A stretch of DNA of 64,000 nucleotides from Haliotis cracherodii. Its lineage: Eukaryota. Positions 43,535 through 44,982 of the stretch are shown piece after piece. Where the stretch lies: assembly GCF_022045235.1 (NCBI RefSeq), contig NW_027266273.1, positions 22,134,001-22,198,000 of the forward strand. The letters are read 5' to 3'. Each line of letters begins with the position of its first letter. The first letter of the stretch is position 1. The notes under the pieces are model-generated. The model saw only the letters and a program-made list of their open reading frames with translations, did not search any database and was not told the DNA's origin. The translations under genes were made by a program, and so were the position numbers.

Positions 43535-43946
43535 TATGTTCCAGATGTGTCCAGACCTGGTGTCACCCTTTTGCAGGTTAAGCTTGCACCTCCAGCATCT
43601 GGCATAGTGTGAGATATCGCCACAAACAGCATGTCTATGTTGGGGTCCATGGTTCTCCAGATGTGACTCGGGCCAACAACACACATTATCATGGCGAAGA
43701 GGAATTACTCTATGTGGGTCAACATATGTGCTGATTGCCATGCTGGTATAAAAAGGCTTCAAATGCCACCTACTTTCATTACCATCTGTTCTCCAAGACA
43801 TTAAGTCCCACGCCGACCTGAGGTACGTTATATGTCTAGTGTCATTCTTCATCATTGTTTGACAACCAACATCTACAAATCTGTGAGTGAGTGAGAGAAA
43901 CTGCTTTAACACTGTTGTAATGTTCATGCAATATGACGGCGGCATG

Positions 43947-44982
43947 GTATTGCAGTTATAGCACGTCAGATTGATGTGGGTTGCTGGGGACAGATTCTAC
44001 CTGGGTCCCCACGGGGAACAGTATTGCAGTTATAGCACGTCAGATTGATGTGGGTTGCTGGAGACAGATTCTACCTGGGTCCCCACGGGGAACAGTATTG
44101 CAGTTGCAGCACGTCAGATTGATGTGGGTTGCTGGGGACAGATTCTGCCCCGGGTCCCCACGGGGAACAGTATTGCAGTTATAGCACGTCAGATTGATGT
44201 GGGTTGCTGGGGACAGATTCTACCGTGACCCGGGTCCCCACGGGGAACAGTATTGCAGTTGTAGCACGTCAGATTGATGTGGGTTGCTGGGGACAGATTC
44301 TACCGTGACCCCGGGTCCCCACGGGGAACAGTATTGCAGTTATAGCACGTCAGATTGATGTGGGATGCTGGGGACAGATTCTACCCCGGGTCCCCACGGG
44401 GAACAGTATTGCAGTTGTAGCACGTCAGATTGATGTGGGTTGCTGGGGACAGATTCTACCGTGACCCCGGGTCCCCACGGGGAACAGTATTGCAGTTGTA
44501 GCACGTCAGATTGATGTGGGTTGCTGGGGACAGATTCTACCGTGACCCCGGGTCCCCACGGGGAACAGTATTGCAGTTATAGCACGTCAGATTGATGTGG
44601 GATGCTGGGGACAGATTCTACCCCGGGTCCCCACGGGGAACAGTATTGCAGTTGTAGCACGTCAGATTGATGTGGGTTGCTGGGGACAGATTCTACCCCG
44701 GGTCCCCACGGGGAACAGTATTGCAGTTGTAGCACGTCAGATTGATGTGGGTTGCTGGGTACAGATTCTACCGTGACCCCGGGTCCCCACGGGGAACAGT
44801 ATTGCAGTTGTAGCACGTCAGATTGATGTGGGTTGCTGGGGATAGATTCTACTCCGGGTCCCCACGGGGAAAAGTATTGCAGTTATAGCACGTCAGATTG
44901 ATGTGGGATGCTGGGGAGAGATTCTACCCCGGGTCCCCAAGGGGAACAGTATTGCACTTATAGCACGTCATATTGATGTTGG
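43947..44982. repeat. 74-81-bp tandem array containing a family A-like head hairpin
   Basis: About 14 units; minus strand cccgtggggacccggggtagaatctgtccccagcaaccca. Confidence 0.95.

Follow-up and report, generated by a model that had tools for sequence, protein, structure and literature searches.

The locus considered here raises the question of what a tandem array of retrotransposon-like hairpins represents: a satellite built around a ribozyme, or a repeat of a more ordinary kind. The array occupies 43947..44978 on the minus strand of the window, by which we mean the whole stretch of 64,000 nucleotides of Haliotis cracherodii DNA that was analysed. Tandem Repeats Finder, run on this 64-kb window, gave a period of 75 with 13.4 copies and 92% matches at 43947-44979, and this output, together with unit splitting and a junction pattern, resolves into 13 full units, each 74-81 nt long, plus a partial one of 30 nt. 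Split on the minus strand, six units are 75 nt long, four are 81 nt, two are 74 nt and one is 80 nt. An initial annotation had described a tandem array of the head hairpin of a dispersed SINE (family A), with a 6-nt length variant falling in the loop. The array is real and the variant does lie in the loop, where the 6-nt insertion is present in 5 of the 13 units. The 40-mer that had been given for the unit, however, occurs exactly in just one of the 13; it describes the head piece and leaves the other 35 nt of each unit unexplained.

We consider it very probable that the array is a retrotransposon-derived minisatellite, confined to a single locus and born at the junction of a SINE tail and a LINE head, that likely has no RNA function and is not a ribozyme satellite. 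Each unit is a chimera in which 35 nt of the tail of a tRNA-type SINE, here named family C, adjoin the opening 40 nt of a LINE subfamily that is older and decayed. In unit 4, for example, the spacer from the family C 3' end lies at 44713..44747 and the head piece at 44673..44712 (both on the minus strand), the latter being the first 40 nt of a GGGGAC/GTCCCC LINE 5' head, with only the first stem-loop and a possible pseudoknot partner. With up to 6 mismatches allowed over 26 letters, the spacer matches the 3' end of 10 family C copies. Furthermore, the array is entered through the decayed 3' portion of a SINE of family C (44944..45007, minus strand), where unique flank runs into the first spacer; the local score of this stretch is 60 against a shuffle maximum of 30, and none of 1000 shuffles reached it. 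Because the spacer and the flank both match the 3' part of this SINE, the unit can be read as the tail-head junction of two elements. The earlier description of a head concatemer of an older subfamily therefore survives with regard to the older subfamily, but nearly half of the unit is the tail of a different SINE.

The whole unit is matched at one place only. In a DNA search of the 1.18-Gb genome of this species the other 40 matches listed covered the head part alone, and a pattern for the spacer-head junction (2 mismatches allowed) had all 13 of its genome matches inside the array, with none for the control. The array has the properties of a retrotransposon-derived minisatellite, namely a tandem unit below about 100 bp in tens of copies or fewer, homology of the unit to dispersed retroelements, and a flank that continues into them. 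The 64-kb window also contains about twenty long minisatellites, mutually unrelated and with periods of 16-75, so tandem expansion is common in this region.

With regard to the donor of the head, the 40-nt piece is 78-82% identical to the family A heads in the window (best E 3e-7) and, among the matches listed, 87-95% identical over 39-48 nt to dispersed heads in the genome (best E 2e-9). The closest dispersed heads have the same GGGGAC/GTCCCC stem and then continue for several hundred bases that are unlike family A and correspond to a LINE 5' UTR. An exact 32-letter head pattern was found genome-wide in three dispersed copies and three array units, and a looser pattern for the head family gave 51 matches. 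All eight of the GGGGAC LINE copies that we fetched have decayed remnants of ORF1 or ORF2 downstream on the same strand, and no target site duplication (TSD) was seen around these eight; on both counts the donor is an older LINE subfamily. The dispersed GGGGAC/GTCCCC subfamily that the initial annotation had suggested looking for thus exists and is older. As judged from these sequence comparisons, the donor is the 5' end of a LINE of that subfamily and not, as had been supposed, a subfamily of SINE family A. A GGGGAC-headed SINE subfamily was also considered as donor and set aside, as a genome search with locus L018 returned ordinary family A bodies instead.

Family A itself, a SINE roughly 250 bp long, has a LINE-derived head and a shared tail, the head found by a covariance model being common to the SINE and the LINE. 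It appears to fit the Haliotis LP-SINE described in PMC4758252, which it resembles in its length of about 250 bp (the Hdi_LP consensus in that source is 255 bp) and in its non-tRNA head. The array differs from the LP-SINE of PMC4758252 in that no more than 40 nt of the head are present and that these came from a LINE, not from a SINE. A complete family A head at 36318..36386 (plus strand; 75.5 bits over all 70 model positions) was our comparator within the window, and an exact search found a TSD around none of five family A copies there. A diverged LP head with a GGGGAC start sits on a family A-like body at 40030-40093 (minus strand, 35.9 bits), likely in an intron of a minus-strand gene. Many family A copies also have a 22-nt tandem duplication of the second hairpin of the head, as at 36357-36401, 24382-24426, 31449-31491 and 5646-5687.

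At its far end the array meets a stretch that had been taken for its own family A-like terminal tail (43885-43945). The likeness to family A is well founded: the tail at 43885..43942 (minus strand) scores higher in local alignment against both of two family A copies than 1000 of 1000 shuffles do. It differs from the family A copies of the window in one respect, as those terminate in (CAAA)n rather than in (CTCA)n. Its membership in the array is not well founded, since in the X7 and X14 contigs the letters beyond 43942 are those of a family A body and not of the array. Given these contigs, the tail belongs to a separate copy of family A type that was likely fused to the array by a deletion in the genome of this species.

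Related contigs offer some view of how the array came about. Its 75-nt go-back joint is present in contigs of X7, X14 and X16, those of X7 and X14 include the entry flank, and at least organisms B and E have the array at the orthologous position. In X14 (organism E), one contig of 504 nt comprises the entry flank, then two units and then a third head, which runs on into ATTGCTG, the next letters of the LINE; the last spacer of this contig keeps 12 more letters resembling the SINE tail. What we say of the ancestral state comes from this one X14 contig, the record of which was matched between two analyses by equal length and depth, and unitigs can misrepresent repeat number. It is likely that an older LINE copy inserted into the tail of a family C SINE and that the resulting LINE/SINE junction was duplicated by slippage or unequal exchange. 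The motif CCCA, shared by the head end and the SINE, may have seeded the first duplication; it is all that the two share there, six letters fit either side of the 75-nt joint, and as a candidate seed CCCA is shorter than the flanking repeats of 5-10 bp through which minisatellites are described to arise from SINEs (PMC6947457). A TGTTC direct repeat could then have removed 12 letters of the SINE tail, the array would have grown from about three heads to 13, a deletion would have fused its end to the neighboring family A tail, and the stem would be drifting inside the array; few contigs bear on this order of events.

The array had been placed just upstream of paralog 1. The first frame of a gene on the minus strand, one exon of which gives a weak match to the PA domain, ends at 40995, which is about 3 kb from the array, and the array likely lies inside an intron of a gene on the plus strand. 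A 368-nt contig of X16 covers 43793-43823 and then continues with 30 shown letters identical to 45367-45396. Because it skips 1543 nt flanked by GT and AG (43823..45365, plus strand), we infer an intron that holds the array in antisense orientation; the evidence of splicing is one contig, with 31 letters on its short side, from a run guessed to be RNA. The preceding exon would be a 25-nt non-coding one (43798..43822, plus strand, AG before and GT after, from the same contig), and the following exon (45366..45615, plus strand) would encode a small, probably secreted protein, with its ATG at 45369 and a putative donor site after 45615. The coding exon is single-copy in the genome apart from a 71% paralog, and its protein returned no Pfam family and no Atlas match above 0.77. 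The exons at 45366-45615 and 54132-54326 (both plus strand) are paralogous, and the small protein specified by each begins like a signal peptide and has two cysteines. As for the spliced contig, its first 36 letters are absent from the window and have one near match in the genome, at C5:40733152-40733178, where no other homology to the plus-strand gene was found. A fragment of a DDE_3 transposase lies between the array and the minus-strand gene (42811-43311, plus strand, E 1.5e-9).

It is conceivable, if improbable, that the array is a co-opted regulatory repeat in which the head keeps a promoter or protein-binding activity, so that the expression of either the host gene or the minus-strand gene is influenced by its 13 copies. 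The head has been proposed as a putative internal promoter (PMC4758252), but just 40 of its roughly 70 positions are kept. The array is common to related organisms, yet its copy number appears to differ between them, and while it points towards the minus-strand gene some 3 kb away, nothing in this analysis shows a transcript start. The persistence of the array in organisms B and E permits a function but does not show one.

The possibility of a ribozyme satellite was raised by the hairpin, and the hairpin deserves separate consideration from the array. Between array and family A, a change of AA to GG in the stem is paired with TT to CC, as had been pointed out, and the stem is preserved across subfamilies; in addition, a third stem pair changes from U-G to C-G. 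The paired changes are not isolated in a wider alignment of 23 distinct heads, hand-picked out of pattern-biased samples so as to represent family A, one array unit and three LINE subfamilies. Pairing holds there in 97.5% of the cells of the 7-bp stem, and at three pairs both sides change: 7-30 (U-A, G-C, A-U), 8-29 (G-C, A-U) and 11-26 (C-G, A-U, U-G). For these 23 heads the score of the whole structure is 0.323, against 0.119 for shuffled alignments (0 of 500 reach 0.323) and at most 0.105 for slid ones. A set of 33 head sequences agrees with the 7-bp stem and adds a second hairpin that is 80.6% paired, and one common head subfamily (15 of 133 heads) has a T-T mismatch in the stem. By eye, the scallop head in the supplement of PMC4758252 has different stem letters that still pair. 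We take the hairpin to be real at the level of the family, on alignment evidence, with the paired changes amounting to a handful of inherited events. As these changes separate dispersed subfamilies, they record selection on retrotransposon RNA before the head was captured.

A putative pseudoknot between the G-run of the loop and a downstream C-run has less support than the stem: there is hardly any variation in its core, covariation is limited to one pair (4 of 33 sequences), and an end pair is broken in the main family A form and in some young LINE copies. In nested thermodynamic folding the stem was not favored in the array units, with a mean pair probability of at most 0.05 in 11 of 13, and mostly not favored in nine dispersed heads either (0.00-0.59). 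Such folding, which leaves pseudoknots outside its model, cannot discriminate, because the stem is unfavored in the array and in most dispersed heads alike.

Inside the array there is no sign of stem upkeep, although the numbers of substitutions are small. Nine of the 13 units keep all 7 bp of the stem, a single pair is broken in each of three others, and the remaining unit has a G-U; 4 of the 14 distinct substitutions among units hit the stem (14 of 75 positions), where about 2.6 are expected, and none is compensated. The covariation comes down to one inherited subfamily difference and is no mark of selection within the array. Scored with the covariance model of the 70-nt head, the 13 units reach 30-53 bits, whereas the five whole heads with the highest scores have 58-76; model positions 41-61, which form the second hairpin, are skipped in both array unit alignments shown, and each unit appears to lack that hairpin.

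A ribozyme-like structure is found elsewhere, at the 5' end of relatives of the donor LINE. A 58-nt domain lies directly upstream of the head in 32 of 76 heads inspected, and its distribution follows head type: 31 of 34 GTGGAC heads, 1 of 13 GGGGAC heads, 0 of 28 family A heads and 0 of 1 other. The domain fits a minimal HDV-like fold, with P1 (7 bp), P2, P3, L3, P1.1 and CUAA and almost no P4. G1-U is present in 26 of 27 copies, and the pairing holds in 93.6% of 513 cells in these 27, against 38-47% when slid; there is little covariation (2 cells), the copies being closely related. The best Rfam match is RF02682 (HDV-F-prausnitzii), at E 0.024 and 22.6 bits, below the gathering score of 44 bits; the alignment spans model positions 1-74, and the L3 and J4/2 consensus with its catalytic C fits. 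The first 23 letters of the domain have at least 1,033 genomic matches at no more than one mismatch (control 0), and the first 30 of these matches all run on into the head or its 3' half.

The family with this 5' end is a young one, and all four copies that were fetched (L182-L185) are full-length LINEs of about 6.2 kb with a (CTCA)n tail resembling SINE tails, and in each of them a TSD of 11-15 bp abuts G1. The letters upstream of G1 vary across 25 distinct flanks, and by these flanks and the TSDs the 5' end of the element coincides with the predicted cleavage site of the HDV-like domain. Both ORF2 sequences scanned have RVT_1, Exo_endo_phos_2 and RNase_H domains above the Pfam cut-off, next to a separate ORF1. 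The parent LINE therefore has the features of the I group, that is, an ORF2 with APE, RT and RNase H, a separate ORF1, a tandem-repeat tail and a TSD, and it is a putative Nimb-type element. The Nimb label comes from this domain architecture and from the homology of the head described in PMC4758252. The predicted ribozyme would serve to release the parent LINE from host transcripts, a role that has been reviewed for R2, L1Tc, RTE and baggins (PMC6765202).

Could the array then be a ribozyme-bearing, retrozyme-like satellite, as the initial annotation was reminded of, whose transcripts self-cleave to monomers or circles that reinsert? We regard this as very unlikely. Its units are head to tail and carry a stem that covaries, but the stem changes inside the array are uncompensated. 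Relatives of the donor LINE carry the HDV-like fold, but that domain is upstream of only 1 of the 13 dispersed heads of GGGGAC type. Short array contigs do occur in X16, the putative RNA run, where neither strand nor level is visible, and the strand that carries the head runs antisense to what is likely the pre-mRNA of the host gene. The array itself shows no ribozyme core of a described class and its head is truncated: (i) Rfam gave one unrelated match on the array, at E 8.3, and no match at gathering threshold on the whole 64-kb window; (ii) hammerhead core motifs were absent from both strands of the array; and (iii) an HDV descriptor that finds three of three positive controls found nothing in it. 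The same descriptor matched none of eight family A or GGGGAC heads, so that we also set aside the head itself as an HDV fold, and relaxed ARAGORN output was taken as noise. There is precedent for tandem structured units in animal retrozymes and in the ribozyme satellites of newts and schistosomes (PMC7229834), and to that extent the array is alike. The animal non-LTR retrozymes described in that source, however, have a hammerhead in each monomer of 150-450 bp and occupy many loci, whereas the array has no hammerhead, a unit of 75 nt and one locus.

It is equally hard to credit that a reverse transcriptase, switching template repeatedly between LINE head and SINE tail, laid down an RNA-level concatemer in one insertion event: the tails of both donors do resemble that of the LINE found here, and other head tandems exist (three heads with a 52-nt period in L134), but the units have in common some private changes that neither donor family shows, their patterned variants (an 81-nt form and an ATCCC form) are typical of DNA-level spread, and a related contig (X14) has fewer units.

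A minisatellite born at a LINE/SINE junction, the reading that we favor, has precedent. VNTRs derived from Alu and B1, discussed under the Haber-Louis model (PMC6947457), likewise have a short unit cut from a retroelement, occupy one locus and grow from the duplication of a short motif; the array differs in that its unit spans the junction of two elements and keeps a fragment of a structured RNA. Tandem arrays of SINEs in introns are known in bivalves (PMC11481361). With retroelement minisatellites and intronic SINE tandems already described in these two sources, the array is an ordinary case. Alone it carries little weight, as a clean case, open to dating, of how a retrotransposon junction gives rise to a minisatellite, and possibly as a length marker.

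The head and its parent LINE are of wider consequence. According to PMC4758252, a LINE-derived head of 70 bp is common to the Haliotis LP-SINEs (Hdi_LP and Hmi_LP), Nimb-17_LMi, I-3_DR and RTE-9_CPB, and by eye our head shares its loop, linker and second-hairpin motifs with the scallop Nimb-17 homology block there. The section of that paper on these SINEs proposes a promoter and describes no secondary structure, upstream ribozyme or partner LINE for them; it was the only paper on LP-SINEs, dated 2016, that our literature search found relevant. Our covariation data support the view that this "LINE promoter" head, a putative promoter in the 2016 paper, is a structured RNA. The parent LINE is a candidate partner LINE because its tail resembles the tails of the SINE families in the window, and intact LINEs with the head and a SINE-like tail are thus candidates for the partner called unidentified in 2016.

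HDV-like ribozymes are known at the 5' ends of R2, L1Tc, RTE and baggins LINEs (PMC6765202). The domain of the parent LINE, though not the array, resembles those described there in its P1 with G1-U, P2, P3, L3, P1.1 and CUAA junction and in starting at the first base. As a predicted fold it is unlike known HDV-like ribozymes in that P4 is almost absent, a second structured head follows and the carrier is of I-group type. We found no report of an HDV-like ribozyme in Nimb-type elements in a search that stood apart from Repbase, Dfam, the 2011 survey of LINE ribozymes and most subscription papers. An I-group LINE family whose 5' end coincides exactly with a predicted minimal HDV-like ribozyme is a better lead than the array.

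As to what the head does, self-cleavage at its own 5' edge is disfavored: copies with the HDV-like domain upstream keep it, and their TSDs abut G1. A role at the RNA level, in translation, protection or protein loading and possibly combined with promoter activity of the DNA, seems more likely. A more speculative idea, which we advance tentatively and think somewhat doubtful, is that the 70-nt head is an undescribed pseudoknotted RNA device, of HDV-like topology without P1, found in LINEs and SINEs across animal phyla; it would be either a cap-independent translation or protein-loading element or a new class of ribozyme, and about a thousand LINE copies with divergent ORF1 would share a cassette of HDV-like ribozyme plus device. 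Among 25 distinct copies the median identity of the first 130 nt is 92%, and that of the ORF1 proteins (15 copies) is 60%. Among L152-L181 the first 300 nt are about 90% identical although ORF1 proteins are 60% identical at the median; one reading is that a 5' cassette is common to, or may have been swapped across, these LINE lineages.

Two further observations concern the genomic behavior of these elements. The start of the ribozyme recurs without mismatch at least 62 times, counting both strands, in a 0.76-Mb interval at C2:20829131-21584443, which marks a dense cluster of this LINE. Tandem duplication of the LINE head has also occurred independently of the array: L134:650-790 (on C31 of the genome of this species) has three LINE heads in tandem, with a 52-nt period, followed by a SINE-like tail, and a 40-nt head duplication is present in contigs of X7, X12 and X14, which together indicate that the LINE head tends to duplicate.
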